From: Chloroflexota bacterium
GTDB lineage: Bacteria > Chloroflexota > Limnocylindria > Limnocylindrales > CSP1-4
Direction of reading: 5' to 3'
Length of the DNA stretch: 36,674 bases
NCBI GenBank assembly: GCA_031404615.1
Contig: JANNHX010000173.1
Span: forward strand, 1 to 36,674
In this document: positions 734 through 25,737 of the stretch, one piece after another
How positions within the stretch are numbered: position 1 is the stretch's first letter
Layout: every line of letters starts with the position of its first letter
The notes under the pieces: model-generated
The model's database searches: none
Told to the model about the DNA's origin: nothing
The model's input: only the letters and a program-made list of their open reading frames with translations
Translations under genes and position numbers: made by a program

Positions 734-2266
734 TCAGCCCGCCCGCTCGATCTCGGCCTTGCGGCGGTCGATGAAGTCATCGATGGACTCGCGGACGCCC
801 TCGTCCATGGACGGGTCCTCGCCCTCGTCGAGGAGGCGGCGCCAGACGTCCGCGGCGCGGTCGGTCGCGGTGCGCGCACCGTCCTCAGCCCACGTCTCGT
901 AGTTGCGCCAGTCGCTGATGAGCGGCGTGTAGAACGCGGTCTCGTAGCGCTCCAGGGTGTGCGCGGTCCCGAAGAAGTGGCCGCCGGGCCCGACGTCGGC
1001 GATGGCGTCGAGGCCCAGCGTCGCCTCGTCCACCACCACGGGCTGGAGCACCTCGGAGATGAGCTGCAGGAGCTCCGCATCGAGGATGAGCTTCTCGAAC
1101 GAGGCGGTGAGGCCACCCTCCAGCCAGCCGGCGCCCTGGTACAGGACATTGACCCCGCTCATCACGGCGCCCCAGATCGCCATCTCGCTCTCGTAGGCCG
1201 CCTGCGCGTCCACGACCGCTGATGCGGTGACGTTCGACGACCGCCACGGGAGGCCATAGCGGCGCGCCATCTGCCCCGTCGCCATCTGGCCCTTCACGTA
1301 CTCGGGCGTGCCGAAGGCGGGCGACCCCGTGCGCATGTCCACGTTCGAGGTGAAGCCGCCGTAGACCATCGGCGCGCCGGGCCGGGCGAGCTGGCTAAGC
1401 GCCACCATGAACAGAGCCTCGGCGTTCTGGAGCGCGATCGACCCCGCGAGCGTGACCGGGCTCATCGCGCCCGAGAGCGTGAACGGCGTCGCGATCGTGG
1501 CCTGTCCGGCCTCCGCCATCGCGATGAGCCCGTCCGACATGGGGCCGTCGAGGCGGAGCGGGCTGTTGGTGTTGACCACCGTGATCAGCGTGGGTTCCAG
1601 GGCGAGCTGGTCACGGGTGACGCCGCGCATCCGGCAGACGACCTCGACCGCGTCCTCAACGGTCACGCGCCCGTACGCCAGCGAGTGCCAGGTCTTGTCC
1701 AGCAGCGTGGCGAAGGTCCGGTACATCTCGAGGTGGCGGACCGGCACTGGGACGTCCGTCGGCTCGCACGCGCCGCCGCCCTCCTGGTGCAGGACGTTGA
1801 GCCGGCCGACGAGCCGGGTGAACGCCCGCATGTCCTCGAGGGTCCCGGGGCGCCGGCCGCGCGCGAGGTCGCTCGCGAAGGCCGGGCCTCCGACGGAGCA
1901 GAAGACGAGGTTCCGGCCGCCGACCGTCGTGTTCCACGCCGGGTTGCGGGCGTGCAGCTCGAAGGTCCCGGGGGCCGTGGTGATCAGCGCCTCGACCTGG
2001 GCCGGATCGAGGCGGACGCGGCGGGTCGCGTTGTCGATGCTCGCGCCGGCGGCGCGCAGGAGGTCGATGGCGCGGTCGCCCATCACCTCGATGCCGGTGT
2101 CGCGGAGGATCGTCAGCGACGCGTGGTGGATGGCCTCGACCTGGTCCGCGCTCAGCACCTCCGCGGGCGGGAACGGGTTGACGAGGCGGCGCGGCGGGAG
2201 CTGGGGGATGCCCGGGGCGGCTCGGCGCGGTCGGCGGCGGACTGGGCCGCGATCCCCGGAGGTCAC
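734..2266 (-). CDS. MttB-superfamily (trimethylamine methyltransferase family) protein, non-pyrrolysine type; probable quaternary-amine:corrinoid methyltransferase
   Basis: Family-typical blocks: N-terminal RRxxRRAAPGIPQLPPRRLVNPFPPAEVLSADQVEAIHHASLTILRDTGIEV, then NSPLRLDGPM, FTLSGAMSPVTLAGSIALQNAEAL and YGGFTSNVDMRTGSPAFGTPEY. There is no in-frame stop, so no Pyl codon. I prefer the GTG start at 2266, which overlaps the upstream gene's stop (GTGA, 2263-2266), over the longest-ORF start at 2401, which would overlap the upstream gene by 139 nt. Confidence 0.85.
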   Translation of the reverse strand: MTSGDRGPVRRRPRRAAPGIPQLPPRRLVNPFPPAEVLSADQVEAIHHASLTILRDTGIEVMGDRAIDLLRAAGASIDNATRRVRLDPAQVEALITTAPGTFELHARNPAWNTTVGGRNLVFCSVGGPAFASDLARGRRPGTLEDMRAFTRLVGRLNVLHQEGGGACEPTDVPVPVRHLEMYRTFATLLDKTWHSLAYGRVTVEDAVEVVCRMRGVTRDQLALEPTLITVVNTNSPLRLDGPMSDGLIAMAEAGQATIATPFTLSGAMSPVTLAGSIALQNAEALFMVALSQLARPGAPMVYGGFTSNVDMRTGSPAFGTPEYVKGQMATGQMARRYGLPWRSSNVTASAVVDAQAAYESEMAIWGAVMSGVNVLYQGAGWLEGGLTASFEKLILDAELLQLISEVLQPVVVDEATLGLDAIADVGPGGHFFGTAHTLERYETAFYTPLISDWRNYETWAEDGARTATDRAADVWRRLLDEGEDPSMDEGVRESIDDFIDRRKAEIERAG

Positions 2267-3189
2267 GTAGCGGTGCCCCGGAGCGAGGCCCACCAGGCGC
2301 GGACCGCGGGGAACATCGCGGCATCGATCGCCTTGATCTCCTCGCGCGTGATCGGCGCGTCGGCGGCGGCCCGGTCCTCGGCCGGCTCGGCCAGGAAACA
2401 CGCCTCGGCGAGCGGCCGCCCTGGCCGCAGCTCCGCGAGGGTGACGACGCCGCCCCTCCAGGTGTCGAGATTGAGGGCTCGGCCCCCATGGACGAGCGTC
2501 GGCTGGGCGACCGGCGTGTGGCCGTAGACGACCCGCGCGATCCCGGCCTCACGGAACGCCGACCAGGCCTCGGCCTCCGGGAACGTGTGCGGCGACGCGG
2601 ACCAGGCGTCGCGGATCCAGAGCCGCTCCTCCCCCGCCGCCCACGCGTCAAGCGCCTGGAACGGGACCGGTCCGCCGTGGACGAAGAGCACGTCGCCCCA
2701 GGTCGCATAGGGCGCGAAGGTCTCGAGCGCCGGCCTGAAGTCGGAGTCGAAGGCGTCGACGCGAGCCGCGACCTCCAGAGGGGGCATCGCGAGCCATTCG
2801 CCCGGGGCGAGGCCCGCGGACTGCAGCGTCGCCCCGCCCCCGAACGTCAGGAGCGCGCGCCAGATCTCGGGGACGCCGGCGAGGCCCCCGAGCAGCTCGA
2901 CCTCGTGGTTCCCCTCGAGGAGCACCACCAGCCCGCCGCGCGCGGGCGCCTGACCGCGCAGCGCGACGAGCCGCCGCACCAGGCCGACCGAGTCCGGGCC
3001 GCGGTCGACCATGTCGCCGGTGATCACGAGGGCCGTCTCGGGCGGCGCGATCCAGCGGTCACCGCCGTCGGTCACGCCGGCGGTCGCGAGGAGGCGGTCG
3101 AAGACGTCCCGCTGGCCATGCACGTCGCTGGCGGCCCAGACGGCGAACGACGGCGGGATGGTGATGGGGCCGATTCCCGGGAAGGGCAT
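2263..3189 (-). CDS. Calcineurin-like metallophosphoesterase (PPP/ApaH-like phosphatase family)
   Basis: Motifs SDVHGQ (DxH), GDMVDRGPDS (GDxxDRG), EGNHE (GNHE), FVHGG and YGHTP appear in canonical order. ATG at 3189 with GAGGG upstream. Confidence 0.8.
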   Translation of the reverse strand: MPFPGIGPITIPPSFAVWAASDVHGQRDVFDRLLATAGVTDGGDRWIAPPETALVITGDMVDRGPDSVGLVRRLVALRGQAPARGGLVVLLEGNHEVELLGGLAGVPEIWRALLTFGGGATLQSAGLAPGEWLAMPPLEVAARVDAFDSDFRPALETFAPYATWGDVLFVHGGPVPFQALDAWAAGEERLWIRDAWSASPHTFPEAEAWSAFREAGIARVVYGHTPVAQPTLVHGGRALNLDTWRGGVVTLAELRPGRPLAEACFLAEPAEDRAAADAPITREEIKAIDAAMFPAVRAWWASLRGTAT

Positions 3190-3295
3190 GCGGCGGTGAC
3201 CCTCAGTGGCCGGCGTCGACGGCGGCCGGTCGGCCGGTCGAGGCGGAGCGGTTGCAGCCTACCGCCCCGGCGCGGCACTCCGCATGGGAGCACGA

Positions 3296-4801
3296 TCAGC
3301 CCGCGGGCTGGGCGACCCCCGACCGAACCCGCTTGGGGCCCGCGATCCACAGCGCGACCGACCACAGGACGAGCGAGCCGAGGATCACCGGGATGAGCGG
3401 CGCGAACGATCCGGTCGTGTCGAGCGCCACTGCGCCCAGGTAGACCGCGATCGTGCCGCCGACCGGGTAGGCCACGCCCAGCAGCCCGAAGATCGTCCCG
3501 AAGTTCGGGCCGCCGAAGACGTCGCCGAAGGCCGCCGATCGGACGGCGATGGTGGCCCCGGTCCCGAGTCCGTGGACGATGATCCCGACCGCCGCCACCG
3601 CCGGGACCGCGCCCACGAGGCCGAGCGCCGCCACGACCCCGCCCGCCACGGCCGCGGCCGCCGCGACCCCCACGACCCGCCGACCGATGTGGTCCGACAG
3701 CCAGCCGCCGAGGATCTGCCCGAACACGTAGGCCAGCGACTGGAGCCCGAGCGCCGTCGCCGCCCAGCCCGCCCCGAGCCCGACCTTCATGGCGCTGGGG
3801 ATGAACGCCTGCAGGACGCCCTCGTCGAAGACCCCGATCGCGGCGGCACCAGCGAACAGCAGCCAGAACCGGCGCGTCCGCACAACGCGGCGAACGCTCC
3901 GCGGGTGCTCGCCGCTGCCGACGGGCTGGATCTCACGGGCGGCCGAGACCGCGCCCGGCGCCGACACCTCGTGGAGGCCCGAGGCGTGGCGCGCCTGGAC
4001 GGCCTCGGTGCCCCGGACGTCGAGCTGGCCGGCGCTCATCGGCTCGCCCAGGGCGATCGAGGGCCGCCCGATGGGGCTCGCGAGGAACGTGGCGACCTCC
4101 GGGCCGATCACCGCCACCGCCGGCCCCCGCGGCTCCGCGGCGCCCGCCGGGCCACGCACGTCCGAGGGCGCCGAGGCCCGCCGCCGCTCCGGTCGCCGTG
4201 CCGGGACGACGATCGCCGGGCCGCTGGTCATGACCCACACGAACGCCACCCCGACGAGGCACGACGCCAGGAACACGAGCGACGTCGAGCGCCAGCCCGC
4301 GGTGGCGATCAGCCCGCCGGCGATCGGCAGGGCGATCGCGACGCCGATGCCCGGCCCTGCGTACGCGATCCCGAGCGCGAGCCCGGACATGCCCGCATAG
4401 CGCCGCGCGATCGCCGTGGACGTCCCGATGAACGAGAGCTGGAGGCCCAGCGCCATGAACACGGCGTAGGCCAGGATGACGAGCGAGATCTCCTGCGCCA
4501 GGTACAGCGCAAGCCAGCCGGCCGCGAGCAGCACCATCGACGCCGTGAGGAGGTCGCGATCGGCCCACTCGTCGTACGCGCGGCCCAGCAGCGGGCTCGC
4601 GACCGCGGTGACGACGAGGAACATCGTCCAGGGGGTGACCGCGAGCGTCCGGCTGATCCCGAACTCACCCGCGAACGCGACCGAGATGGCCGGGAACGTG
4701 TACAGCCCGCCGTACGCGATCGCGCCGACCACGAACGCCCCCACCAGCGGGAGGGAGGCGCGCCAGGCGCGTCGGGCGATCGGGAGGGCCATCCCCGCCA
4801 T
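3296..4801 (-). CDS. MFS transporter (OFA-like) with a long central cytoplasmic loop
   Basis: Two blocks of hydrophobic helices are separated by a charged loop of about 110 aa (ARRPERRRASAPSDVRG...VRTRRFW). The N-terminus LPLVGAFVVGAIAYGGLYTFPAISVAFAGEFGIS is typical of MFS. The start is taken at ATG 4801 (or 4792). The longest-ORF start at 4930 adds a T/R/P-rich non-protein-like extension. Confidence 0.75.
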   Translation of the reverse strand: MAGMALPIARRAWRASLPLVGAFVVGAIAYGGLYTFPAISVAFAGEFGISRTLAVTPWTMFLVVTAVASPLLGRAYDEWADRDLLTASMVLLAAGWLALYLAQEISLVILAYAVFMALGLQLSFIGTSTAIARRYAGMSGLALGIAYAGPGIGVAIALPIAGGLIATAGWRSTSLVFLASCLVGVAFVWVMTSGPAIVVPARRPERRRASAPSDVRGPAGAAEPRGPAVAVIGPEVATFLASPIGRPSIALGEPMSAGQLDVRGTEAVQARHASGLHEVSAPGAVSAAREIQPVGSGEHPRSVRRVVRTRRFWLLFAGAAAIGVFDEGVLQAFIPSAMKVGLGAGWAATALGLQSLAYVFGQILGGWLSDHIGRRVVGVAAAAAVAGGVVAALGLVGAVPAVAAVGIIVHGLGTGATIAVRSAAFGDVFGGPNFGTIFGLLGVAYPVGGTIAVYLGAVALDTTGSFAPLIPVILGSLVLWSVALWIAGPKRVRSGVAQPAG

Positions 4802-5050: not shown

Positions 5051-6031
5051 CTAGCTTGCGGCGGGCGTCCCGCGAACCTCGATCGTGACGTCCCAGCAGA
5101 TCCGTTCGCCGGCCCGTAGCAGCAGTGCCCGTCCGGACGCCATCGCAGTGTCGAGGTCATCGTGCCCGGACGTCGTGGGCTCGATGGCGACCTGCGTGGC
5201 GCCCGAGCCCGCCGGCCAGCCGCCGGCGTCGATCCACAGGCCCACCGCCGGCACGTGCTCCCGCGTCCAGCTGAACATGATCGAGGCACCGTCAGGCGTC
5301 GTCGCGCCCACGGGGCCCGGCGGTGCCGGATCGGCGTAGAGCTTCGTGGCGAAGCCCGCGCCGCCGGCCTGGACCACGGAGAGGTCGACGGCCGGGCTGC
5401 CGACGACGACCGGCCAGGGGGTGGGACGCCGGAGCGGCGCGGCCTCCAGCCCGGTGCCGATCTCCTGGGACAGGGTCACACTGGTGCCCTGCGGGAGCTC
5501 GAATCTCGATCCTGGCTCGAGCTCAAGGAGAGCGTGCATGGACCAGAGCACCGGCAGGTCGACGGCCGATGCGTTCACGAGAGCGTACGCGGCATGGATG
5601 ACGCGGTCCTCAAGCCTGAGCCGGCGTTCGAGGTGCAGGGGCCATCGGGTGTCGTTCCATCGGGTGGCGACCATCCGGCCGTCGGTGCCCGGCACCACCC
5701 GGACGGCGGCGCTTCGTGCCCATTGGGCGCCGTGGTCGCGGAGAGGCGGGCCGTCAGGATCGATCGGGCCGTTGGCGGGCGCCACCGTCGGGAGGCACTC
5801 GTCCCAGCCGTAGGCTTCGCGGAGCCCGAAGACCGCCGTCTCGCGCCGCCACGCCGTCAACTCGGAGGGTGTCGGCGGGGTGCCCTGGACCAGCCACTCG
5901 CGCCCCGAGTGCCGATCCCGGAGCGACGTGACCCGCCCACCCAGCTCCGGCACCATCGTCAGGAGCAGATCGGCACTCTCCAGGGAGATGACTTGCAGAT
6001 GTCCGAACGCGCCGTCCCTGGCGTCGCTCAC
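5051..6031 (-). CDS. Aldose-1-epimerase/galactose-mutarotase-like fold protein
   Basis: The 326-aa product (VSDARDGAFGHLQVISLESADLLLTMVPELGGRVTSLRDRHSGREWL...WDECLPTV...HALLELEPGS...IEPTTSGHD) resembles mutarotase-like/DUF4432-type proteins. GTG start at 6031 overlaps the upstream stop (GTGA, 6028-6031). The rest of the 630-aa longest ORF is off-frame overlap with the upstream gene. Confidence 0.55.
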   Translation of the reverse strand: MSDARDGAFGHLQVISLESADLLLTMVPELGGRVTSLRDRHSGREWLVQGTPPTPSELTAWRRETAVFGLREAYGWDECLPTVAPANGPIDPDGPPLRDHGAQWARSAAVRVVPGTDGRMVATRWNDTRWPLHLERRLRLEDRVIHAAYALVNASAVDLPVLWSMHALLELEPGSRFELPQGTSVTLSQEIGTGLEAAPLRRPTPWPVVVGSPAVDLSVVQAGGAGFATKLYADPAPPGPVGATTPDGASIMFSWTREHVPAVGLWIDAGGWPAGSGATQVAIEPTTSGHDDLDTAMASGRALLLRAGERICWDVTIEVRGTPAAS

Positions 6032-7302
6032 TGACGGGCGCTCCCGAATGCCGCTGCGGCGATCTTCCCCGATCGGACCGCTCCCTCCACGCAGGGCTGG
6101 ACGAGCCAATCGCCGGCGAACACGATCGGCGGTTGCTGCCTGAGCGCGCGCAACGGCGCGAAGTACCCCGGCCTCACGACGGGCACGGCGTGCGGCCAGC
6201 GCACGAGATGGGTGATCTCGGCCGTCTCGAGCGGGAAGAGGCTCGGGTCGATGGCCGTGCCGGCTGCCCAGAGCGTCGATGCGAGCTCCGCGTCCGGCAT
6301 CGGGACGAGTCCGGCACTCGACGCGGCCGGCGCGCACACGAGTGCCCACTCCCATCCGGGCGGCACGCGGCCCCAGGAGCCGTCCCCGCCGGATCCCTGC
6401 TCCACGGTTGCGACGACATCGTTGGGGAGGGCATGGATCCCCGTCCGCGGCCGACCCGGACCGCGGCGCGCCGCGTACAACCGGACATGCGGCGCGTACT
6501 GGACGCCGCGGACCGCCTCCGGCAGGTCGGCACCGTCCACAAGCTGCACCGCGAGTGGTGCCGGTACGGCGACGACGACCCCGTCGAACCGCTCGACGGA
6601 GTCGGCCAGGTGCACCTCCACGCCGTTGCCCGTCCGCACCAGCCGGTCGACACGCGAGCCGGTCCGGACCCCGACGATCTCGCCGAGGTGGCGCCAAGGG
6701 GTGTCCATCCCACCGTCCACCTGGAAGAACGTGCCCACCGACAGCGCGCGCAACCACGAGCGGACGAGAGCGGCGGACAGGTCCTCGAGACGCGAGAAGA
6801 ACGGGCCTTCGAACGATGGCCGCACAACCACGTCGGCGGCCGCCCGGCCGATGGAGGCCAGGCCGGTCCGTGCCGTGCGGGCGTCCCAGCCCATGTCGAC
6901 CCGCAGCTCGCCGCGCTGGGTCAGGAACAGCTGCGCCATCCACGCCACGAACCGGATCTTCTCGGATGGCCGCAGCAGGGTTGTCCCGAGGATGCGCCGC
7001 ACCGAGTTCGGGTTCGGCTGGAGGGCACCGTTCAGCAGCAGGTCCCCACCCCCGCGCAGCGAGAGCTCGCGGAGGATGCCCCGAAGCCCGAGCTCGTCCA
7101 GCAGGGCCAGGGTGTCCGGGTAGAACGACGCGAGCCAGCCCGCGCCGTCGTCCGTCCAGTGGCCCGGGCCGTGGTGCGCGGCATGGGTCCTGCCGCCCAC
7201 AACGGGCATCGCCTCGAATACCGTGGGCTCGTGGCCTGCCTGCAGCAACCGGTAGGCGGCCGTCAGCCCGGCCGGTCCCGCCCCGACCACGGCGACGTGC
7301 AT
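6028..7302 (-). CDS. FAD-dependent oxidoreductase, amine-oxidase/protoporphyrinogen-oxidase-like
   Basis: MHVAVVGAGPAGLTAAYRLLQAGHEPTVFEAMPVVGGR is a GxGxxG dinucleotide fold followed by the E...GGR signature. ATG at 7302 is preceded by GGAGG (ggaggtcgcccaATG). Confidence 0.8.
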   Translation of the reverse strand: MHVAVVGAGPAGLTAAYRLLQAGHEPTVFEAMPVVGGRTHAAHHGPGHWTDDGAGWLASFYPDTLALLDELGLRGILRELSLRGGGDLLLNGALQPNPNSVRRILGTTLLRPSEKIRFVAWMAQLFLTQRGELRVDMGWDARTARTGLASIGRAAADVVVRPSFEGPFFSRLEDLSAALVRSWLRALSVGTFFQVDGGMDTPWRHLGEIVGVRTGSRVDRLVRTGNGVEVHLADSVERFDGVVVAVPAPLAVQLVDGADLPEAVRGVQYAPHVRLYAARRGPGRPRTGIHALPNDVVATVEQGSGGDGSWGRVPPGWEWALVCAPAASSAGLVPMPDAELASTLWAAGTAIDPSLFPLETAEITHLVRWPHAVPVVRPGYFAPLRALRQQPPIVFAGDWLVQPCVEGAVRSGKIAAAAFGSARQ

Positions 7303-7381: not shown

Positions 7382-7414
7382 AGACTATACCAATCAAACC
7401 TTTTGTGGTAGTCT
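7382..7414. promoter_or_regulatory. Candidate operator in a divergent promoter: imperfect inverted repeat AGACTATACCA-N13-TGGTAGTCT containing ATACCAAT
   Basis: An AT-rich patch sits in the 143-nt gap between the divergent FAD-oxidoreductase operon and the GntR operon. The ATACCAAT 8-mer (7387-7394) recurs at two other divergent promoters. TAGTCT (7409-7414) is a possible -10 for the GntR operon. Confidence 0.45.
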
Positions 7415-7445: not shown

Positions 7446-8270
7446 GTGAAGGAACCCCTCTACTCGATTATCGCGGGACGCGCCGAGGCGCTGATCCGCT
7501 CGGGAGCGTGGCCGCACGGGACCCGCCTGCCACCGGAGCGGGAGCTGTGCGAGCTCTTGGACGTGAGCCGCACGTCGCTCCGCCAGGCGCTGGCGGACCT
7601 GGAGGAACGTGGTCTGATCACGCGTCACCAGGGGCGCGGCACCTTCGTGACGCGACCCCGGGTGGACGCCGACGCCTCGGGCTACTTCAGCATCGGCGAC
7701 GCCCTCCGCAGTCGCGGCATGGAGCTGACGACCGCGGTGGTCAGCACGAGCATCGTCGAGGCCAGCGAGCACCTGGCGACGGAGCTGTGCCTGGAGACCG
7801 GCGATCCGGTGTTCAGCCTCGAGCGCCTGCGCTCATCGGATGGTGAGGCCGTCGTCCTCGAAGTGTCCCACCTGCCGCTCAGGCTCTTCCCGAGGCTCGA
7901 CCAGAGGGACTTCTCAAGCCGCTCCCTCTACCACGTCCTGTGGGAGGACTACGGGCGCTACGTCGCCAAGGCGAGCGAGACCCTGGAGCCGGTCGTGCTC
8001 ACCAGCCGCGAGGCCCACGTGCTGGGTGTGTCCCGCGGTGCGCCGGCGCTCCTCTTCCGCCGCACGACGCGGGACAGGTCGAACGTCATCGTCGAGGTCG
8101 GTCAGGGCCTGCTCCGCGGCGACCGTTCGCGGTTCCTCATCGAGCGCCACGTGCAGGAAGGCTGGGCGTCGAGCCATGACCCTTCCGCTCCACCCACCAC
8201 GAGCCGTCCCGCTCCCGAGACACCTTCGCGGATCGCGGCGGGACTGCTGGACGCGTCCACCCCACGCTGA
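7446..8270 (+). CDS. GntR-family transcriptional regulator, HutC subfamily (wHTH + UTRA-like effector domain)
   Basis: The N-terminus has LPPERELCELLDVSRTSLRQALADLEERGLITRHQGRGTFV (GntR wHTH), followed by a UTRA-like domain of about 150 aa. GTG start. Confidence 0.9.
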   Translation: MKEPLYSIIAGRAEALIRSGAWPHGTRLPPERELCELLDVSRTSLRQALADLEERGLITRHQGRGTFVTRPRVDADASGYFSIGDALRSRGMELTTAVVSTSIVEASEHLATELCLETGDPVFSLERLRSSDGEAVVLEVSHLPLRLFPRLDQRDFSSRSLYHVLWEDYGRYVAKASETLEPVVLTSREAHVLGVSRGAPALLFRRTTRDRSNVIVEVGQGLLRGDRSRFLIERHVQEGWASSHDPSAPPTTSRPAPETPSRIAAGLLDASTPR

Positions 8271-8283: not shown

Positions 8284-9111
8284 ATGTCCGCCGCAATGCC
8301 CGCCCCGAACGCCGCGCTCCGGTGGCTCGGCGAAGCCCGTGCCGTCCTCGACCGCCTCGAGGCGACAGAGCTCGGGGCGATCGAGGATGCAGCGGAGATC
8401 TTCGCGACCACGATCGCCGCCGACCGCCTTGTCCACGTCTTCGGATCAGGGCACTCGCGGATGAACACGGAGGAGATGTTCCCGCGCATCGGCAGCTTCC
8501 CGGGCTTCCATCCCGTCGCCGAGCTCGCCATCAGCAACCATGTGGGCGTCGTGGGGCCCAACGGGTTGCGCCAGGCCATGTTCCTCGAGAAGGTCGACGG
8601 CTTCGGCAAGGTCATCCTCCAGCAGTTCAAGTGCCACCCGGGCGACGCGTTCCTGGTCTTCTCGAGCACGGGGATCAACGGCGTCGTCATCGAGATCGCG
8701 CTCTATGCCAGGAAGATGGGGATGCCCGTGGTCGTCGTGACGTCGGTGGACCACGGCAACGCCACGGCCTCGCGCCACCCCAGCGGCATGAAGCTCATGG
8801 AGATCGCCGACGTCCTGATCGACAACGGGTCGCCGGCCGGAGACGCCGTCGTGGCGATCGATGGGCTGCCGTACAAGGTGGGCCCCAGCAGCTCCGTGGG
8901 TGCCATCTCGGTCGTGAACATGCTCAAGACGCGCACGGCCGAGAAGCTGGTCGAGCGCGGGGTCCTCCCGGTGGTGCTCACCAGCCCGCACTTCGTCGGC
9001 TCGAGCGAGGGCGCCGAGCAGCTCGAACGGGTCTACGAGGAGCACTTCCGGCGCGTTCGCGCAGCCTACGACTCGGACGGTGCCATCGCGGTGCCGGAGA
9101 CCTACGAGTGA
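8284..9111 (+). CDS. SIS-domain protein (UPF0309-like sugar-phosphate isomerase/binding family)
   Basis: LVHVFGSGHSRMNTEEMFPRIGSFPGFHP...FLVFSSTGINGVVIEIALYARKMGMPVVVVTS. ATG at 8284 has GGAG 6 nt upstream and lies 13 nt after the GntR stop. The upstream part of the 423-aa ORF is off-frame overlap with the GntR gene. Confidence 0.8.
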   Translation: MSAAMPAPNAALRWLGEARAVLDRLEATELGAIEDAAEIFATTIAADRLVHVFGSGHSRMNTEEMFPRIGSFPGFHPVAELAISNHVGVVGPNGLRQAMFLEKVDGFGKVILQQFKCHPGDAFLVFSSTGINGVVIEIALYARKMGMPVVVVTSVDHGNATASRHPSGMKLMEIADVLIDNGSPAGDAVVAIDGLPYKVGPSSSVGAISVVNMLKTRTAEKLVERGVLPVVLTSPHFVGSSEGAEQLERVYEEHFRRVRAAYDSDGAIAVPETYE

Positions 9112-9926
9112 GCGATCGGCTCCGTGGCCGGGCCGTGCTGGTCACCGGGGCCACGGGCATCGCCGGCGCGACCGCCGTGCGCGTCGCGAGTGAGGGTGCG
9201 TCCGTCTTCATCGGGACCCGAACCCAGGCCCACGGCGAAGCGCTCGTGGCGCGCATCCGCGACGCCGGGGGCCGCGCCGAGTGTCTGGCCGCCGACCTCA
9301 CGGTCCCGGAGTCGGCCGCTCGCATCGTCGACGCGTGTCGAGCGGCGTTCGGCTCGGTCGACGCAGTGTTCAACGTGGCCGGCGGGAGCGGCCGCCGCTT
9401 CGGCGACGGCCCCGTCCACGAGGCGGATGCCGGGGCATGGGACGCGACGCTCGAGCTCAACGGCCGCTCGGCCTTCCTCGTTTGTGGCGCCGCGGTGCGC
9501 GCGATGCTCGACCAGCCGCCTGGGCCGGACGGGTGTCGGGGCGCCGTCCTCAACATGTCGAGCGTCCTGGCCGCGCACCCTAGCGCGGGGTTCTTCGCGA
9601 CGCACGCCTACACCGCGTCAAAGGGGGCCGTGGAGGCCTTCAGCCGGGCCATGGCGGCGCGCTACGCTCGGGATGGGATCCGGGTCAACGTCATCGCCCC
9701 GGCGCTGACCCGCACGCCGATGGCCGGACGGGCCGCGGCCGATCCCGCCACGGTCGCCTACGCGGCCTGGAAGCAGCCGCTCGCAGGGGGGTTCATGGAG
9801 CCCGAGGACATCGCCGGCACCGCCGCGTTCCTCCTGTCGGCCGATTCCGCCCGCGTGACCGGCCAGACTGTCACCGTGGACGCCGGCTTCGCGCTCATGG
9901 ATGCCTCGTCGGCGGGCGCCTCGTGA
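9108..9926 (+). CDS. Short-chain dehydrogenase/reductase (SDR)
   Basis: VLVTGATGIAGATA (TGxxxGxG) and the catalytic YTASK (YxxxK). GTG start overlaps the SIS stop (GTGA, 9108-9111). Confidence 0.9.
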   Translation: MSDRLRGRAVLVTGATGIAGATAVRVASEGASVFIGTRTQAHGEALVARIRDAGGRAECLAADLTVPESAARIVDACRAAFGSVDAVFNVAGGSGRRFGDGPVHEADAGAWDATLELNGRSAFLVCGAAVRAMLDQPPGPDGCRGAVLNMSSVLAAHPSAGFFATHAYTASKGAVEAFSRAMAARYARDGIRVNVIAPALTRTPMAGRAAADPATVAYAAWKQPLAGGFMEPEDIAGTAAFLLSADSARVTGQTVTVDAGFALMDASSAGAS

Positions 9927-20980: not shown

Positions 20981-22114
20981 TCAGGCGCTCGCGGTGGTCC
21001 TGGACCCGGACCGCTCGGAGCGCGACTGGCGCCACTGCGACAGGGCGACCGCGAAGACGAGCAGCATGCCGAGGGCGATCCGCTGGTAGAACTGGCCCAC
21101 GCCGAGCAGATTCATCCCGTTGTTGAGGACGCCGACGAGCAGGACCGCGAGGACCGTGCCCACGATGGTGCCGCGGCCACCCGCGGTCGCCGCCCCGCCG
21201 AGGAACACGGCGGTGATCGCCTGGAGCTCGAGGCCGCGACCGTTGATCGGGTTGCCCGACGTCGTCTGGGCCGTGAGGAGGACGCCGGCGATGCCGGCGA
21301 TCGCGCCCGACACCACGTACATGCCGATGCGCACAGCCCGGACGTTGATGCCCGCCAGGCGTGCGGCCGTGGCGTTGCCGCCGATCGCGTAGATGGACCG
21401 GCCGAAGTCGGTGTAGCGCATGACGATGTGCATGATCGTGGCCACCGCGATGAACACCACGAACATGACCGGCAGTCCCGGCCACGGGCGTCCTCCAAGC
21501 GCAGGCAGCGGCAGGTCCTGGAGAAATCGGCCTGTCCCCAACCACGTGAAGTCGGGATGGGTGACGATGCCGATCGGCTTGCCTCCGGGCGCAACGAGGA
21601 ACGCGAGGCCGTCGAATGCGGCCAGCGTGCCAAGCGTTGCGATGATCGGGTTCACCTTGAGGACCGTCACGATGAGGCCGTTGATGACGCCCGCGGCAGA
21701 CCCGGCACCCATGCCGGCGGCGAAGGCGAGCACCACGGAGCCCTCGAAGGCACCGAGGATCCCCTGGGTCACGGCAAGGGCAGAGACGACGGACGCCAGG
21801 CTGGCGATGGAGCCGACCGAGATGTCGAGCGCGCCGGCGACGATGACGGCCGTCTCGCCGACCGCCAGGAGCCCGACGATGACCACGCTCTGGGCGAGGC
21901 TGTTGATGAGGTTCTGCCACGAGAAGAAGTTCTCTCCGCCCTTGATCCCGAATAGCGGCGAGACAAACGCGATCAGGATGCCGAGAGCCGCCAGGGCAGC
22001 GAACAGCGAGAGGTTGTCCACGCCGATCGTGCCGATGACCCGGCGAAACACTCCGGGCCCCGTGGGCTTCGCGGATGGTGCGGGCTGCACGGCCGGAGCC
22101 TGCCCGTCGTTCAT
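20981..22114 (-). CDS. Sugar ABC transporter permease (CUT2/RbsC-XylH type)
   Basis: About 10 hydrophobic segments and GALDISVGSIASL (typical of BPD_transp_2 permeases). ATG at 22114 overlaps the ATPase stop (ATGA, 22111-22114). The longest ORF adds an R/P-rich junk extension. Confidence 0.85.
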   Translation of the reverse strand: MNDGQAPAVQPAPSAKPTGPGVFRRVIGTIGVDNLSLFAALAALGILIAFVSPLFGIKGGENFFSWQNLINSLAQSVVIVGLLAVGETAVIVAGALDISVGSIASLASVVSALAVTQGILGAFEGSVVLAFAAGMGAGSAAGVINGLIVTVLKVNPIIATLGTLAAFDGLAFLVAPGGKPIGIVTHPDFTWLGTGRFLQDLPLPALGGRPWPGLPVMFVVFIAVATIMHIVMRYTDFGRSIYAIGGNATAARLAGINVRAVRIGMYVVSGAIAGIAGVLLTAQTTSGNPINGRGLELQAITAVFLGGAATAGGRGTIVGTVLAVLLVGVLNNGMNLLGVGQFYQRIALGMLLVFAVALSQWRQSRSERSGSRTTASA

Positions 22115-23697
22115 GCTCGAACTTCTCCAGCTAGGGCCGGCGGCACGGGGACCGCGGCCAGGTGGTCGGCCATGGCGAGGGCGAGGACGGACTCCTCGGT
22201 CGCCTGGCTGCCGAGGAGCTCGCCGCGGATCCGGCCGGCCTGCATCACGTAGATGCGGTCGCAAAGGCCGAGGATCTCGGTCAGCTCGGACGAGATGAGG
22301 ACGACGGCGAGCCCGTCAGTGGCGAGCCCGTCGATGAGGCGATAGATCTCCGCCTTGGCGCCGACGTCGATGCCGCGGGTCGGCTCGTCGAGGATCAGCA
22401 CGCGCGGCTTGGCGGCGAGCCAGCGGGCGAGGACGACCTTCTGCTGGTTGCCGCCGGACAGCTTGCCGATCTCCTGCTCGAGCGACGGGGTCCGGACACG
22501 CAGGCGGTCGACGAACGTGGCGACGATGCGGCGTTCCTCTCGGCGGCGGACGAAATGCAGGGTCGTGAGGCGCCGCAGGATCGTGAGCGACGCGTTCTCG
22601 AGCACGCTGCGGATCGGGATGATCCCCTCGCGCTTGCGCTCCTCGGGCGTGTAGCCGATGCCGACGCGGATGGCGTCCGACGGGCGGTGGACATGGACCA
22701 CCTTGCCGTCGACCTGCACGGTGCCGGCGGTCATCGGCAGCTCGCCGAACACGACCTTCGCCAGCTCGGTGCGGCCGGCGCCGACGAGCCCGGCGAAACC
22801 GACGACCTCACCCGCCCGCGCCTCGAACGACACGTCTCGGTGCCAGTCGCTGGACAGGTGGTCGACGCGCAGCACGACGGCCCCGGTCGGAGGGCGGTTG
22901 CGGGCGAAGACGTCAGTGATGGGCCGGCCCACCATCAGGCGCACGATCTCGCCCTCGGTAAGGTCGGCGGCGGCGCGCACGGCGACGAGCCGTCCGTCAC
23001 GGAGCACCGCGACGCGGTCGGCCAGGCGGAGGATCTCGTTGATCCGGTGGGAGACGTAGATGATGGCGACGCCCTGCGCCCGGAGCCTGCGGACCAGCGC
23101 GAACAGGCGGTCCACTTCGGCGTCGGTGAGCGACGACGTCGGCTCATCCAGGGCGAGCACCCTGACGCCGGATTTGAGCGCCCGGGCGATCTCCACGAGC
23201 TGCCGCTGGGCGGCCGACAGCCGGTCACCCATGGTCTCGGGGCTCAGGACCGATTCGAACCCAAAGCGCCGCAGGTCCGCGGCAACGAGCTCGTTGAGCT
23301 TGCGCCGATCGATGAACGGGCCACGCGTCGGCAGCTCGCCCGCGTAGATGTTTTCGGCGACGTCCACGCCGGGGATGATCTCGGGCTCCTGGTAGATGAC
23401 GCGGACCCCGGCGTGCCGGGCCTCCCGCGGATTGGAGAACCGGAGGGTCACCCCGTCGAGGGTCATCGTCCCGTCGTCGGGCTGATAGTCGCCGTTGAGG
23501 ATCTTGAGCAGCGTCGACTTGCCGGCGCCGTTCTCGCCCATGCAGGCGAGGATCTCGCCGCCGTGGACATCGAGCGACACGTCGTCCAGGGCCTGGACGT
23601 TTGGAAAGGCCTTGCTCAGGCCGCGGATCTCCAGGGTGCCCGTGTCGGGGCTCCCCGGCTGCCGGTCGGCGGTTGCCGGCTCCAAGTCAGGCGCCAT
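22111..23697 (-). CDS. Sugar ABC transporter ATP-binding protein, fused double NBD (RbsA/MglA/XylG type)
   Basis: NBD1: Walker A GENGAGKST, signature LSAAQRQ, Walker B LALDEPT. NBD2: GLVGAGRTE, LSGGNQQK, LILDEPTRGID. Confidence 0.9.
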   Translation of the reverse strand: MAPDLEPATADRQPGSPDTGTLEIRGLSKAFPNVQALDDVSLDVHGGEILACMGENGAGKSTLLKILNGDYQPDDGTMTLDGVTLRFSNPREARHAGVRVIYQEPEIIPGVDVAENIYAGELPTRGPFIDRRKLNELVAADLRRFGFESVLSPETMGDRLSAAQRQLVEIARALKSGVRVLALDEPTSSLTDAEVDRLFALVRRLRAQGVAIIYVSHRINEILRLADRVAVLRDGRLVAVRAAADLTEGEIVRLMVGRPITDVFARNRPPTGAVVLRVDHLSSDWHRDVSFEARAGEVVGFAGLVGAGRTELAKVVFGELPMTAGTVQVDGKVVHVHRPSDAIRVGIGYTPEERKREGIIPIRSVLENASLTILRRLTTLHFVRRREERRIVATFVDRLRVRTPSLEQEIGKLSGGNQQKVVLARWLAAKPRVLILDEPTRGIDVGAKAEIYRLIDGLATDGLAVVLISSELTEILGLCDRIYVMQAGRIRGELLGSQATEESVLALAMADHLAAVPVPPALAGEVRA

Positions 23698-23782: not shown

Positions 23783-24868
23783 CTACTTGCAGGCTGCGAG
23801 GGAGGCCTTGCTGAAGGTCGCCTCGTACGTGGTCGGGTCCACGATCGTGGTCTTGGCCACGGTGGTCGGCGGCAGGGCCGTGCCGTTGACGACGTTGTCC
23901 CACAGCGCCTGGGCGGCGGCCGCGCCGACGTCGGTGCCGGAGATGTAGAGGCCGGCCTTGAAGCCGCTCTCCTGGCCGGCAGCCCACGGGCGGCAGGCCT
24001 CGTAGGCGCCGAGGCCCACGCCGATGATGGCATCGGGCTTCACGCCGGCGGCGCCCAAGGCGTTGATGCCGCCCAGCACGCTCTCGTCGTTGCAGCCGAA
24101 GACCACCCAGTTGGTGACGTCCGGATGAGCGGTGATGACCGGGGCGGCCGCAGACTGCGAGCCGGCCACGGTGGCGTCCGAGGCGACGGGGAAGATCTGG
24201 TCGGCGGTGGCGCCCGCCTTGGCGACCTCGGCCTTCGAGGCGTCGGTGCGCTGGTTGCAGACGGTCAGGTCCTGCTTCTCGACGGAGAGGACGCCCACCT
24301 TCTTGGTGCTGTCGGTGAGCCAGCCACCCGCGGTGAGGAGGCGACCGGCCTCGACGCCGACCTTGGTGCCCATGTCCGTGCCGTCGAAGCCGACGAACGG
24401 GATGTCCGCTCCGGCGGCGTCCTTGATCGGGTCATCGGTGGCGACGAGGGCCACGCCGGCATCTTTGACGGCGGTCGCGATCGCGGGCCCGATCGACTGG
24501 TCGGGGACCGTGATGGCGATGCCCTTGGCGCCCTTCGAGATGGCGTCGTTGACGAGCTGGACGCCCAGCGGCGCCTCGGCCTTGGCATCGAACTTGGCGG
24601 CCTCGCCGCCGAGGCCGGTGATCGTGTCGACGAACGCGGTCTGCAGGTCGATGAAGTACTGCTGGTCGGCGGCCTTGTTGATGACCACGAACAGCTGCTT
24701 GCCTGCCGCGGAGGGGGCCGCTTCGGACGGGGCTGCGACGGAGGCCGCCGCGGAGGGGGCTGCGACGGAGGCCGCCGCGGAGGGCGACGCCGCCCCGTTG
24801 GACGAGCACGCGCCGACGGCGAGCGCCACGATGGCGGTCAGTGCCGCGACGCGCTGAACCTTCTTCAA
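23783..24868 (-). CDS. Sugar ABC transporter substrate-binding lipoprotein (CUT2, periplasmic-binding-protein type I)
   Basis: The TTG start at 24868 has a perfect AGGAGG 6 nt upstream and gives (M)KKVQRVAALTAIVALAVGAC, a signal peptide plus lipobox LAVGAC. This is followed by an Ala/Ser/Pro linker and an RbsB-like body (KQLFVVINKAADQQYF...GIAITVPDQ...VVFGCNDE). The longest ORF (25030) is rejected. Confidence 0.85.
   Translation of the reverse strand: MKKVQRVAALTAIVALAVGACSSNGAASPSAAASVAAPSAAASVAAPSEAAPSAAGKQLFVVINKAADQQYFIDLQTAFVDTITGLGGEAAKFDAKAEAPLGVQLVNDAISKGAKGIAITVPDQSIGPAIATAVKDAGVALVATDDPIKDAAGADIPFVGFDGTDMGTKVGVEAGRLLTAGGWLTDSTKKVGVLSVEKQDLTVCNQRTDASKAEVAKAGATADQIFPVASDATVAGSQSAAAPVITAHPDVTNWVVFGCNDESVLGGINALGAAGVKPDAIIGVGLGAYEACRPWAAGQESGFKAGLYISGTDVGAAAAQALWDNVVNGTALPPTTVAKTTIVDPTTYEATFSKASLAACK
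24728..24781. repeat. Perfect 27-bp tandem duplication (2 copies) inside the SBP linker
   Basis: GGGGCTGCGACGGAGGCCGCCGCGGAG occurs at 24728-24754 and again at 24755-24781. It encodes SAAASVAAP twice, with a degenerate partial copy just upstream. Confidence 0.9.
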
Positions 24869-25014
24869 GTGAGACCTCCTGTGCGGGCGGCCGAACGACA
24901 TCTGACCTGCACCAGCGGGTCGGGGCTGGAGGACGACAACGGCTGACCCGGCGCGGTTGGCCTCGAAGGCTGCCGCCTGTCCGTGCAGTGTGCGGATCGG
25001 CGCTGGGACTGTCA

Positions 25015-25036
25015 ATACCAATAATGCCATTATGGT
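25015..25036. promoter_or_regulatory. Candidate operator: ATACCAATAAT-GCC-ATTATGGT (imperfect inverted repeat containing ATACCAAT)
   Basis: An AT-rich patch lies in the 230-nt divergent gap between the ABC/DUF5107 operon and the aldolase gene. It shares the 8-mer with sites at 7387 and 16397. Confidence 0.4.
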
Positions 25037-25098
25037 TCAGACAGGCGAGGCGTTCACCACCCGGCCGACCGCTCGCCGCAACCTCAGCGAGGAGCACC

Positions 25099-25737
25099 AT
25101 GCGTGATCGCATCGGCATCCCCACCGAGATCGCGCGCGGGCGTGTGATCGCCATCGTGCGGGGGATCGGGCCGGAGCGGATCGTCGAGATCGCCGGCGCG
25201 CTCACGGCAGGCGGCATACGGGCCATGGAGGTCACGCTCAACAGTCCGGGCGCGATCGCGTCCATCGGTCGCCTGGCGGCAAGGTTCGGGAGCGAGGACC
25301 TGCTGATCGGCGCCGGGACGGTCATCGCCGAGGACGGCCTGCGCGAGGCGCACGGCGCAGGCGCCCGCTTCGTCGTCATGCCGCACACCGATCCGGCGCT
25401 GATCGAGCTGGCGACGAGCCTCGGCCTGGCCAGCATCCCCGGCGCGAGCACGCCCACGGAGGCTCTGGTCGCGTGGCGCGCCGGCGCATCGGCCGTGAAG
25501 GCCTTCCCGGCCTCGGTCCTGGGCGTCGGCTTTGTGCGCGAGATGCACGGACCCCTGCCCATGATCCCGCTGGTGCCGACCGGCGGCGTGACGCTCGAGT
25601 CGGCACCGGACTTCGTCCGGGCCGGGGCCATCGCCGTCGGCATGGGCAGCTGGCTGACGAGCCAGGGTGAACCGTCGGCCATCAGCGCTCGGGCAGCGCA
25701 GCTCGTCGCAGCCCTCGAGACCGCGGCGGCGGGATAG
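25099..25737 (+). CDS. KDPG/KHG aldolase family protein (Eda-like)
   Basis: IAIVRG...EVTLNSPGA...LIGAGTV...VKAFPAS (Schiff-base Lys context)...VPTGGV. ATG at 25099 has GAGGAG 5 nt upstream. Confidence 0.85.
   Translation: MRDRIGIPTEIARGRVIAIVRGIGPERIVEIAGALTAGGIRAMEVTLNSPGAIASIGRLAARFGSEDLLIGAGTVIAEDGLREAHGAGARFVVMPHTDPALIELATSLGLASIPGASTPTEALVAWRAGASAVKAFPASVLGVGFVREMHGPLPMIPLVPTGGVTLESAPDFVRAGAIAVGMGSWLTSQGEPSAISARAAQLVAALETAAAG

Follow-up and report, generated by a model that had tools for sequence, protein, structure and literature searches.

Plant, algal and microbial glycans contain methylated sugars, which can obstruct normal sugar catabolism. The Rieske enzyme MocDE demethylates rhizopine in an O2-dependent reaction, and the demethylases known to us for carbohydrates and related compounds, Rieske enzymes included, are all O2-dependent. 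The P450 demethylases that act on carbohydrates are likewise O2-dependent, and the genes for P450 demethylation of 6-O-methyl-D-galactose are located in sugar-utilisation loci (PMC6292453, PMC10033563). Corrinoid chemistry is used by the three-component O-demethylases (Odm/Vdm, Mtv and MtoABCD) of acetogens, Desulfitobacterium and archaea, in which a corrinoid protein with a DxHxxG motif is encoded beside methyltransferases of the uroporphyrinogen decarboxylase (URO-D) superfamily and the methyl group passes from substrate to Co(I) to acceptor (PMC8630106, PMC10418091). The present analysis concerns a gene island at positions 734-25737 of a 36.7-kb window (the whole stretch of DNA analysed, from Chloroflexota contig JANNHX010000173.1), in which the same kind of corrinoid protein and three URO-D-superfamily proteins are encoded among genes for a monosaccharide importer and for sugar catabolism. 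The same sequence of methyl transfers is proposed here, in a role like that of the P450 and Rieske enzymes, namely to strip off a methyl ether and so open the sugar to central catabolism.

A preliminary description of this island had suggested that a methylated, monosaccharide-like compound is imported and demethylated through a B12-dependent shuttle. The association of the corrinoid and URO-D genes with the sugar genes is, with high confidence, real, conserved and co-regulated, as judged from synteny and promoter-motif data. The chemistry is assigned more tentatively: at somewhat short of an even chance, the island is a HutC-regulated regulon by which an imported O-methyl aldose of galacto or arabino configuration would be demethylated via the corrinoid protein.

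Results

Conserved synteny of the corrinoid, URO-D and importer genes

Genes were called from third-position GC content (GC3) over the window, which has a G+C content of 72%, and were then assigned by Pfam and NCBIfam scans. Twenty genes were called in 734-25737, arranged in six transcription units that run out of three divergent intergenic regions (Table 1). The unit leading leftward from ~7290-7446 contains the amine-oxidase-type flavoprotein and the mutarotase-like protein g05 and, after short gaps, the MFS, metallophosphoesterase and MttB genes, while the unit leading rightward from 7446 contains GntR/UTRA, SIS_2, SDR, PF12831 flavoprotein, ROK and PTE-family genes. The corrinoid protein, URO-D1 and g13 (434 aa) form the unit leftward from 16322, with URO-D2 alone rightward from 16438. 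The solute-binding protein (SBP), the double ATP-binding cassette (ABC) ATPase, the permease and the DUF5107-TPR protein are encoded leftward from 24901, and the KDPG-type aldolase rightward from 25099. All kinds of gene named in the preliminary description were recovered here (CUT2 importer, MFS, ROK, SIS, SDR, PTE-family lactonase and KDPG-type aldolase), as were all eight start/stop overlaps (GTGA at 2263, 6028, 9108, 9923 and 11245; TGATG at 12247; ATGA at 14522 and 22111), but its count of about 22 genes was too high.

The major data on conservation came from 80 genome loci anchored on URO-D1 orthologues (about 61-81% identity; loci are designated L001 and so on), onto each of which all window proteins were mapped. 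A corrinoid protein gene was found within 10 kb of URO-D1 in 25 of the 80 loci, abutting it with a median gap of ~4 bp, and these orthologues, at 47-70% identity, span several Chloroflexota classes. Among the 43 loci of at least 15 kb, 27 had a CUT2 permease within 10 kb of URO-D1, compared with 0 of 80 MttB-anchored controls, which were mostly shorter loci. The run SBP-ATPase-permease-mutarotase-like protein-corrinoid protein-URO-D1, with the DUF5107-TPR gene beside the SBP gene, was observed in L008, L011 and L013, and the same run from importer to URO-D1 minus the mutarotase-like gene in L016. The core run was also present in L006, L021 and L022, with DUF5107 not in view, and in the Anaerolineae loci L029, L033, L037, L067 and L083, together with extra URO-D paralogues. 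The g05-type mutarotase was found in 16 of the 80 loci, usually between the permease and the corrinoid protein, and DUF5107-TPR orthologues (45-68% identity) adjoin the SBP gene in L001, L008, L011, L013, L016 and L065.

The catabolic genes recur with these modules. In L015, URO-D1 and URO-D2 are followed by a GntR-SIS-SDR-FAD oxidoreductase-ROK-PTE series at 58-75% identity (74% for the SIS orthologue). In L001, where URO-D1 is 83% identical, URO-D2 diverges from corrinoid protein-URO-D1 and is followed by the aldolase diverging from the SBP gene, with permease, DUF5107 and PTE matches further along. L169, which lies on the same 2-Mb contig as L004, has the aldolase diverging from importer-mutarotase and, on the opposite strand, GntR/UTRA-SIS_2-(SDR+PF12831 fusion)-ROK-PTE. 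GntR orthologues thus head the same catabolic operon in L015 and L169, and the aldolase adjoins the system in L001, L011 and L169. ROK, PTE and URO-D2 form a single run in L006, and URO-D2 follows ROK-PTE in L021 too; in L169 the ROK-PTE operon ends instead in a core-MetE-like protein (11105-12148, PF01717, 347 aa) with intact HxC...E...C zinc ligands. It was deduced that this slot is taken by one or other zinc-type enzyme of the URO-D/CIMS clan. L169 belongs to the closest genome-level relative, in which ~220 kb separate the trio of corrinoid protein, URO-D1 and URO-D2 from the sugar genes.

The g13 gene was absent from the species-representative URO-D1 loci. On one JGI contig, however, a corrinoid protein-g13 pair occurs together with URO-D1, GntR, ABC genes and a GFO/IDH/MocA oxidoreductase, and in L167 and L168 the neighbour of the g13 homologue is a CUT2 importer. 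For URO-D1, g05 and g13 alike, the best matches came from Chloroflexota metagenome-assembled genomes (MAGs), namely uncultured Chloroflexia, Candidatus Limnocylindrales and, further out, Anaerolineae. An actinobacterial origin, which the 72% G+C had first suggested, was rejected on these grounds in favour of a probable high-GC Chloroflexota lineage. The core recurs in several Chloroflexota lineages, and the pairing of B12 and sugar genes is therefore not a one-off juxtaposition; a lack of synteny in other genomes, named in the preliminary description as refuting it, is contradicted for the core.

Two further neighbourhoods were noted. In L084 (1179-21275; GCA_942493055.1, a 6.1-Mb chromosome), a g13 homologue (61%) and two URO-D genes lie in a glycan-degradation cluster with three GH106-family genes, a GH67N/DUF4838 protein, an AraC-type regulator and a PATR-repeat protein, with no corrinoid protein in view; this locus ties the URO-D and g13 families to complex-glycan degradation outside Chloroflexota. 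In ~8 Chloroflexia loci (L011 at 11780-17159, which equals L002, also L009, L010, L020, L021 and others), a Hox-type NAD-linked [NiFe] hydrogenase operon is directly downstream of URO-D1, and in L167 (1172-7582) such an operon is upstream of the g13 homologue that adjoins the CUT2 importer. The operon comprises 2Fe-2S_thioredx, Complex1_51K, Fer2_4/NADH-G, Oxidored_q6 and NiFeSe_Hases genes plus an open reading frame (ORF) cluster resembling a maturation protease. Its position could reflect lineage synteny, or it could supply low-potential electrons for corrinoid reduction.

A promoter motif shared by the three divergent regions

Each of the three divergent intergenic regions contains one exact copy of the motif ATACCAAT (7387, 16397 and 25015), and the window has no other; shuffles gave an expectation of 0.02 occurrences. 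The shared motif of the preliminary description was upheld by this comparison, and the single HutC-type regulator that it named proved to be the one GntR+UTRA gene in 734-25737. In L001, the intergenic region between the divergent URO-D2 and corrinoid protein genes has CATACCAATCCTACCATT, and that between the aldolase and SBP genes has AATACCAATCGTGCCATT. ATACCAAT is also found upstream of the GntR orthologue in L015, and a related palindrome, GATTGGTCCTGACCAATCGTACC, lies between the DUF5107 and SBP genes in L008, L011 and L013. The presence of the motif at orthologous sites in relatives supports a single regulon under a HutC-type repressor.

Metal sites of the URO-D-superfamily proteins

The corrinoid protein consists of a B12-binding domain with an N-terminal cap and carries the canonical DxHxxG (DLHDIG), SxL (SALL) and GG (VGGAP) motifs; its best NCBIfam match was to glycine-betaine-type MtgC models, under cutoff. 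Its gene is flanked by those of three URO-D-superfamily proteins. The three UROD-like proteins counted in the preliminary description correspond to URO-D1 and URO-D2, identified by PF01208, and g13, identified by its model fold. Sequence-only PDB searches with g13, and also with g05, yielded no meaningful match, and structure prediction was needed for both. The g13 model (pLDDT 87.6) gave URO-D/HemE or MtaA as all of the best 24 PDB matches in Foldseek. URO-D1 scored below cutoff on the MtaA/CmuA subfamily model (TIGR01463, 72 bits versus 235), as did URO-D2 (57 bits); the two share 36% identity across the C-terminal half.

The metal-ligand positions are invariant within each of the three families, and in none of them do they form the His-x-Cys...Cys thiol-activating zinc site. 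The closest PDB entry to URO-D1 was MtaA (4ay7, E=6e-10), and in the alignment to this structure the MtaA ligands His-x-Cys...Cys are replaced by His267-x-Asp269...His351, which are invariant in 26 sequences from several phyla in a family of >3900 homologues. URO-D2 keeps His-x-Cys with a downstream His (FYHGCG, VHNIQ) in 11 orthologues, and g13 has an invariant YYGCCE motif in a family of 960 homologues, the best listed of which share 61-85% identity.

A conserved 375-aa family without a Pfam match, here called c11, was seen ~16 bp from URO-D1 in 16 loci (L060 at 11122-12249 and 15 others) of Anaerolineae and other Chloroflexota, most of which have no corrinoid protein in view. Its HMM gave marginal matches only, to URO-D1 (E=0.006) and g13 (E=0.2), and c11 may be another highly divergent URO-D-like partner.

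The importer, the mutarotase-fold proteins and the type of sugar

The importer was assigned to the CUT2 class from its Peripla_BP_4 SBP, fused double-ABC ATPase and BPD_transp_2 permease, encoded in a single operon. The SBP has a lipobox-like AVGAC followed by an Ala/Ser/Pro linker, and its closest PDB entries were those of the Escherichia coli L-arabinose-binding protein (E=7e-27). The sugar specificity of the importer was not assigned, because the AraF, AraG and AraH matches are all under equivalog cutoffs.

Two mutarotase-fold proteins had been listed in the preliminary description, and both were substantiated. The g05 model (pLDDT 93.2) matched 3mwx, 4bze, 3nre and 5cd6 as its top folds in Foldseek, with E values down to 4e-15, and thus aligned with GalM structures as well as 5cd6; its homologues carry the name "galactose mutarotase-like enzyme". 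The DUF5107-TPR protein, which has no evident signal peptide, matches 5cd6 by sequence over residues 66-360, so this structure is common to g05 by fold and to the DUF5107 domain by sequence. Residues H100, H166, D247 and E284 of g05 are invariant in 32 homologues and represent a candidate catalytic set, which we take to resemble H96/H170/D243/E304 of GalM by order and spacing only.

The gene contexts of relatives are consistent with the same type of substrate. Acidobacteriota loci have the order GH42 beta-galactosidase, mutarotase-like gene, URO-D1 orthologue, and in Anaerolineae, URO-D1 loci contain LacI, a CUT2 importer, galactokinase, a Fucose_iso-type isomerase, an FGGY kinase and a class II aldolase. 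A reducing aldose of galactose- or arabinose-like configuration is accordingly favoured by these patterns of relatedness over a cyclitol or a quaternary amine. The substrates suggested in the preliminary description were thereby narrowed: its O-methyl sugars are favoured by the AraF-like SBP, the GalM-like enzyme and the GH42 and galactokinase contexts, whereas its cyclitols and quaternary amines are disfavoured. A reducing aldose is what a GalM-type mutarotase and the GH42/galactokinase contexts imply, and cyclitols of the pinitol type are less likely for this reason, although an oxidoreductase of the GFO/IDH/MocA type is carried by one relative.

The Acidobacteriota arrangement was seen in two MAG loci, L039 (4542-11092) and L045 (5991-11095), and the mutarotase-like gene has a weak DUF4432 match in L039 only. 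Neither an ABC importer nor a corrinoid protein was detected within the fetched flanks of either locus.

The catabolic operon and the aldolase

The PTE-family protein had "phospho-furanose lactonase" as its best NCBIfam match (172 bits versus a cutoff of 630). Its kinship to lactonases of phospho-sugar lactones suggests the order kinase, dehydrogenase, lactonase ahead of the aldolase. The aldolase scored 166 bits on the KDPGal subfamily model, under the cutoff of 207 and equal to its score on the KDPG model, a tie in line with a galactose-like substrate. In L169 (17172-19283) the SDR and PF12831 flavoprotein are fused into one protein of 703 aa, which suggests that the window genes 9108-9926 and 9923-11248 act jointly.

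The MttB block and the amine-oxidase-type gene

The MttB protein was assigned as a non-pyrrolysine member of its superfamily because its ORF has no internal stop and its score on TIGR02369 (307 bits) is below the cutoff of 525. MttB relatives were compared in 80 metagenome loci (51-89% identity, 0.6 Mb in total), and corrinoid protein, URO-D1/2, DUF5107 or CUT2 genes were found in 0 of the 80. In the reverse direction, only 2 of the 80 URO-D1-anchored loci had an MttB-like match, and both matches were weak (25-27% identity). The closest MttB relative (L086, 89%) alone shares an adjacent MFS gene (83%), and an orthologue of the metallophosphoesterase was absent from all related loci examined, L086 included. 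Within the window, MttB is 13 kb from the only corrinoid protein, and gaps of 107 bp and at least 120 bp set the block apart from the g05 operon; a sigma-70 promoter and terminator scan of 300-8300 found nothing. The amine-oxidase-type gene was not found in related URO-D1 loci and is peculiar to the window.

Since 0 of the 80 related MttB loci carry corrinoid or sugar genes, the MttB block is probably a lineage-specific addition outside the conserved system, and MttB was rejected as a core member for want of this linkage. The "complete set" of corrinoid methyl-transfer parts given in the preliminary description is thus retained as regards the coupling of the corrinoid protein and URO-D genes to the sugar genes and dropped as regards MttB. 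The MFS-metallophosphoesterase-MttB genes may represent a separate methylamine-type module that uses the single corrinoid protein of the island.

In L086 the MFS and MttB genes are start/stop-coupled (8364-11482), with no corrinoid protein nearby. ORFs at 14235-17517 of the same locus resemble a glycyl-radical enzyme and its activase, as judged from the sequences alone without a family scan, and would hint at an anaerobic lifestyle of this relative.

Table 1. Features called at positions 734-25737 of the window, with the matches by which they were assigned
Feature	Position	Strand	Assignment
Non-pyrrolysine MttB-superfamily methyltransferase	734..2266	-	PF06253, 622 bits; residues 8-506 = profile 5-499 of 500
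Calcineurin-like metallophosphoesterase	2263..3189	-	PF00149; GTGA overlap with MttB at 2263
MFS transporter, lactate / oxalate-formate type	3296..4792 (start possibly 4930)	-	PF07690; NCBIfam L-lactate MFS and OFA
g05, GalM-fold mutarotase-like enzyme, 326 aa	5051..6031	-	Model fold; no Pfam match above threshold (PF01263 included)
Amine-oxidase / phytoene-desaturase-type flavoprotein	6028..7290 (start possibly 7374)	-	PF01593 and PF13450; overlaps g05
Operator-like motif ATACCAAT	7387..7394	+	Between divergent flavoprotein and GntR genes; within GACTATACCA-N11-TGGTAGTC
HutC-subfamily GntR regulator	7446..8270	+	PF00392, E=1e-20 (winged helix-turn-helix); PF07702 UTRA, E=9e-37
SIS_2 sugar-isomerase-domain protein	8296..9111	+	PF13580; NF002805, 264 bits versus cutoff of 135
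SDR, closest to sugar 1-dehydrogenase-type models	9108..9926	+	PF13561, PF00106; glucose 1-dehydrogenase subfamily below cutoff
FAD-dependent oxidoreductase	9923..11248	+	PF12831 (FAD_oxidored), 367 bits, full length
ROK-family sugar kinase	11245..12249	+	PF00480; ROK glucokinase subfamily below cutoff
PTE-family lactonase, phospho-sugar-lactone type	12249..13214	+	PF02126; best PDB 3msr/3ovg, 3pnz
g13, divergent URO-D-superfamily protein, 434 aa	13221..14525	-	PF01208 sub-threshold, E=0.0065; start/stop-coupled to URO-D1
URO-D1, MtaA-like URO-D-family enzyme	14522..15649	-	PF01208, E=1.6e-27
Corrinoid (B12-binding) protein	15693..16322	-	PF02310 and PF02607
Tandem operator-like motif ATACCAATCCTACCAAT	16397..16413	+	Between divergent corrinoid protein and URO-D2 genes
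URO-D2, URO-D-family enzyme	16438..17583	+	PF01208, E=2.2e-20
DUF5107 (mutarotase-fold) and TPR protein, 1125 aa	17596..20973	-	PF17128 and TPR families; last gene of importer operon
CUT2 ABC permease	20981..22114	-	PF02653 (BPD_transp_2); best NCBIfam AraH
CUT2 ABC ATPase, two ABC domains	22111..23685	-	PF00005 x2; best NCBIfam AraG, 592 bits, under cutoff
SBP, lipoprotein, AraF-like	23783..24901	-	PF13407 (Peripla_BP_4)
Operator-like motif ATACCAAT (ATACCAATAATGCCATT)	25015..25022	+	Between divergent SBP and aldolase genes
KDPG/KDPGal-type class I aldolase	25099..25737	+	PF01081; TIGR01182 eda, 166 bits versus cutoff of 156

Flanking regions of the window

Of the three flavoproteins counted in the preliminary description, two lie in 734-25737; the third may be the 3' end of a ferredoxin-reductase-type flavoprotein at 1-345, represented by a Reductase_C fragment outside that range. 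Between the end of this fragment at 345 and the MttB stop codon there is a 390-bp gap without a convincing gene. On the other side, 25738-27077 has a weak coding signal: a long ORF at 25873-26985 has a marginal YCII-like match in its last 90 residues only, and GC3 supports just ~26671-26985; the remainder may be non-coding or a decayed gene. The genes at 27078-36672 form a nitrogen-flavoured neighbourhood unrelated to the island, with an M24-family peptidase-like protein, an S-adenosylmethionine methyltransferase, DUF1801, a PII-ammonium transporter pair, a pyridoxal phosphate-dependent decarboxylase, a GlmS-type amidotransferase and the start of argininosuccinate synthase.

Discussion

Proposed pathway

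In the tentative pathway for an O-methyl aldose, the sugar would be imported by the lipoprotein AraF-like SBP and the AraGH-like CUT2 transporter, and the GalM-fold enzyme, perhaps together with the cytoplasmic DUF5107-TPR protein, would handle the anomers of the sugar or present it. URO-D1 would then move the methyl group from the sugar to the neighbouring corrinoid protein in its Co(I) state. The harder Lewis-acid His-Asp-His site would suit an alkoxide leaving group, by analogy with the zinc activation of methanol in MtaB, and the metal is proposed to activate the O-methyl ether and to stabilise the alkoxide during Co(I) attack. A second URO-D/CIMS-clan enzyme with a thiol-type metal site would take the methyl group off the corrinoid, with a thiol such as homocysteine as a possible acceptor. 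Here the candidates are URO-D2 (His-Cys-His) and/or the YYGCCE protein g13, and in one relative the core-MetE-like enzyme. For core MetE enzymes, methylcobalamin or corrinoid proteins are established methyl donors (PMC7005905, PMC7857596). The demethylated sugar would be phosphorylated (ROK), oxidised (SDR with PF12831), delactonised (PTE-type protein) and cleaved by the KDPG(al)-type aldolase.

Several observations weigh against this pathway. To our knowledge, no enzyme cleaves an aliphatic sugar methyl ether with Co(I). The known corrinoid O-demethylases act on aryl methyl ethers (PMC8630106). No RACE/RamA-type reductive activase and no pterin-binding (MeTr-type) methyl-corrinoid:tetrahydrofolate methyltransferase was matched by Pfam or NCBIfam among the called genes of the window, and neither was present among the annotated recurrent neighbour clusters of the URO-D1 loci; an activase may yet be encoded at another place in the genome. 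No dehydratase was found among the called genes, which leaves the route to the substrate of the KDPG-type aldolase incomplete, and a complete Entner-Doudoroff- or De Ley-Doudoroff-type route was not assignable for this reason. No definite step is assigned to the SIS, PF12831 and amine-oxidase proteins. A scan for Rfam elements found none in the window, a B12 riboswitch included. The donor-side and acceptor-side roles given to the URO-D proteins are inferred solely from their metal-ligand patterns, the comparison genomes are all MAGs or metagenome contigs, and in 55 of the 80 URO-D1 loci no corrinoid protein gene lies within 10 kb.

Alternative explanations

The last of these observations also bears on the alternative that survives best, although we consider it unlikely, namely that URO-D1, URO-D2, g13 and c11 are metal-dependent TIM-barrel enzymes that carry out a cobalamin-independent step on sugars of the galactose/arabinose type, with the corrinoid protein an accessory in some lineages. 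Such a step could, with the same low probability, be an isomerisation, an epimerisation, a decarboxylation or a direct group transfer. Many of the loci lacking a corrinoid protein consist of LacI, CUT2, isomerase, kinase and aldolase genes or of a GH42-mutarotase pair with no B12 gene in view, and URO-D1 has His-Asp-His in place of the thiol-type zinc ligands. MetE, moreover, belongs to the same fold group and transfers methyl groups without cobalamin. However, where the corrinoid protein is present it abuts URO-D1, with the conservation across Chloroflexota classes given above, and the closest solved relative of URO-D1 is MtaA, a methylcobalamin-dependent enzyme. Ordinary galactose and arabinose pathways require no extra enzyme, and a 20-kb stretch around a locus cannot prove that a corrinoid protein is absent from the whole genome.

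A second alternative, which we judge less likely again, detaches the B12 and URO-D genes from the imported sugar and assigns them to a small methyl compound, to a methyl-sulfur or methyl-selenium metabolite or to methionine synthesis. Co-location with the sugar genes would then reflect, with equally little probability, shared regulation or history rather than a shared substrate. The His-Cys-His of URO-D2 and the Cys-Cys-Glu of g13 are of the kind usual in thiol-activating zinc sites, L169 has a core-MetE-like enzyme, its zinc ligands intact, in the place of URO-D2, and the ~220-kb separation of the B12 trio from the sugar genes in the closest genome-level relative is as this alternative would have it. 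Furthermore, type 1 mlp clusters, with multiple MtaA-like genes and a corrinoid protein, have been proposed to act on methyl-sulfur and methyl-selenium compounds (PMC10418091). On the other hand, many genomes encode the corrinoid protein and URO-D1 within the importer operon, behind the permease and mutarotase genes, and the URO-D2 or MetE-like gene lies inside the ROK-PTE operon. The operator motif is common to the three promoters, and URO-D- and g13-like genes occur in glycoside-hydrolase clusters of other phyla. The hallmarks of type 1 mlp clusters, a RACE gene and occurrence in obligate anaerobes, appear not to match the island, where no RACE-type gene was found among the called genes.

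It is improbable that MttB is the main substrate-side methyltransferase, acting on an N-methylated or quaternary-amine compound that is sugar-like or a phospho-ester. This would involve, no more probably, uptake by the MFS transporter, dephosphorylation by the phosphoesterase, demethylation by MttB onto the corrinoid protein, and URO-D proteins serving as acceptors in the manner of methanogen MtbA. A full-length MttB, start/stop-coupled to the phosphoesterase gene and following an MFS gene, would fit such a route, as would the MtgC-type match of the sole corrinoid protein and the location of the block downstream of a promoter with the shared motif. It is opposed by the empty result in the 80 MttB-relative loci, by the occurrence of the conserved system without MttB in every related locus apart from the two weak matches, and by the distance and gaps that separate the block from the corrinoid protein and the g05 operon. 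Finally, a fortuitous mosaic of functionally unlinked B12 and sugar modules is highly improbable: the MttB/MFS/phosphoesterase and amine-oxidase genes are not conserved with the rest and the modules are split across a 2-Mb contig in one close relative, but for the core this is contradicted by synteny in >12 independent Chloroflexota loci and partly in Acidobacteriota, by the shared and conserved motif and by start/stop coupling within modules.

Implications

Sugar demethylation via the corrinoid protein is retained as the preferred reading of this island. The wider claim, that these Chloroflexota and probably members of other phyla with URO-D1- and g13-like genes in glycan-degradation loci possess an O2-independent, cobamide-dependent sugar O-demethylase by which the methyl group is conserved rather than released as formaldehyde, is rather unlikely in our estimate but would have considerable consequences. 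The use of methyl sugars without oxygen would be explained, and aliphatic sugar ethers would join aryl ethers, methanol and amines as substrates of corrinoid methyl transfer, by which the corrinoid methyltransferases would gain a new class of reaction. Vitamin B12 supply would be linked to polysaccharide turnover in soils and waters. A testable function would be given to three large, highly conserved, unannotated families (the URO-D1 clade, the g13 clade and DUF5107-TPR), and with it to many "uroporphyrinogen decarboxylase family" and DUF5107 genes in carbohydrate loci. Should the chemistry be different, the conserved association between a B12-binding protein and a monosaccharide importer would still represent a tractable lead for experiment.

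Comparison with known systems

No published description was found of corrinoid-dependent sugar demethylation or of a function for DUF5107, including by a term search within PMC10418091, and the statement in the preliminary description that a cobalamin route in a sugar locus was undescribed agrees with this. Relative to the three-component O-demethylases, which act on aryl ethers with an ATP-dependent activating enzyme and a tetrahydrofolate or tetrahydromethanopterin acceptor side, the island is distinguished by its sugar ABC importer and its mutarotase-fold and sugar-catabolic context, by the activase and pterin enzyme not having been found, and by a URO-D1 that is closest to MtaA but has His-Asp-His. 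The P450 and Rieske routes depend on monooxygenases that use O2 and release formaldehyde, whereas the island has no P450 or Rieske gene and the methyl group would stay on the corrinoid.

The methanogen systems MtaABC and MttBC with MtbA resemble the island in that MtaA (4ay7) is the nearest solved relative of URO-D1 and in that the window encodes an MttB, a corrinoid protein and MtaA/MtbA-like enzymes. The zinc activation of an aliphatic C-O bond by MtaB is the closest chemical precedent for the proposed step. They differ in that the island has no MtaB homologue and no coenzyme M context, and the His-Cys-Cys of MtaA is changed in URO-D1; its MttB, unlike that of methanogens, lacks pyrrolysine, scores below the trimethylamine model cutoff and shares no synteny with the rest of the island in any of the relatives. 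The MtgB, MtpB, MtcB and MtyB enzymes are likewise full-length, non-pyrrolysine PF06253 proteins, and the corrinoid protein of the island best matches the MtgC type (PMC8604678, PMC13080624). These characterised members, however, adjoin their own corrinoid protein and a methyl-corrinoid:tetrahydrofolate methyltransferase, whereas the MttB of the island adjoins the MFS and phosphoesterase genes.

The type 1 mlp clusters described by Kountz and Balskus (PMC10418091) share with the island several MtaA-like URO-D paralogues and one corrinoid protein without a tetrahydrofolate methyltransferase. These clusters have been reported solely from obligate anaerobes (73% of the encoding genera are Firmicutes), include a Ram/RACE activase and are proposed to act on methyl-sulfur or methyl-selenium compounds, and that work makes no mention of links to sugars, ABC transporters or Chloroflexi (PMC10418091). 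The core methionine synthases MesA-D and core-MetE are related to the island as zinc-dependent members of the URO-D/CIMS clan and through the core-MetE-like gene in the URO-D2 slot of L169. They differ in that the window has no PF01717 protein, URO-D2 and g13 being different branches of the superfamily, and in that MesB is tied to the Wood-Ljungdahl corrinoid iron-sulfur protein, which was not seen here. The parts of the island are thus of known kinds, and it is their combination that appears to be undescribed.

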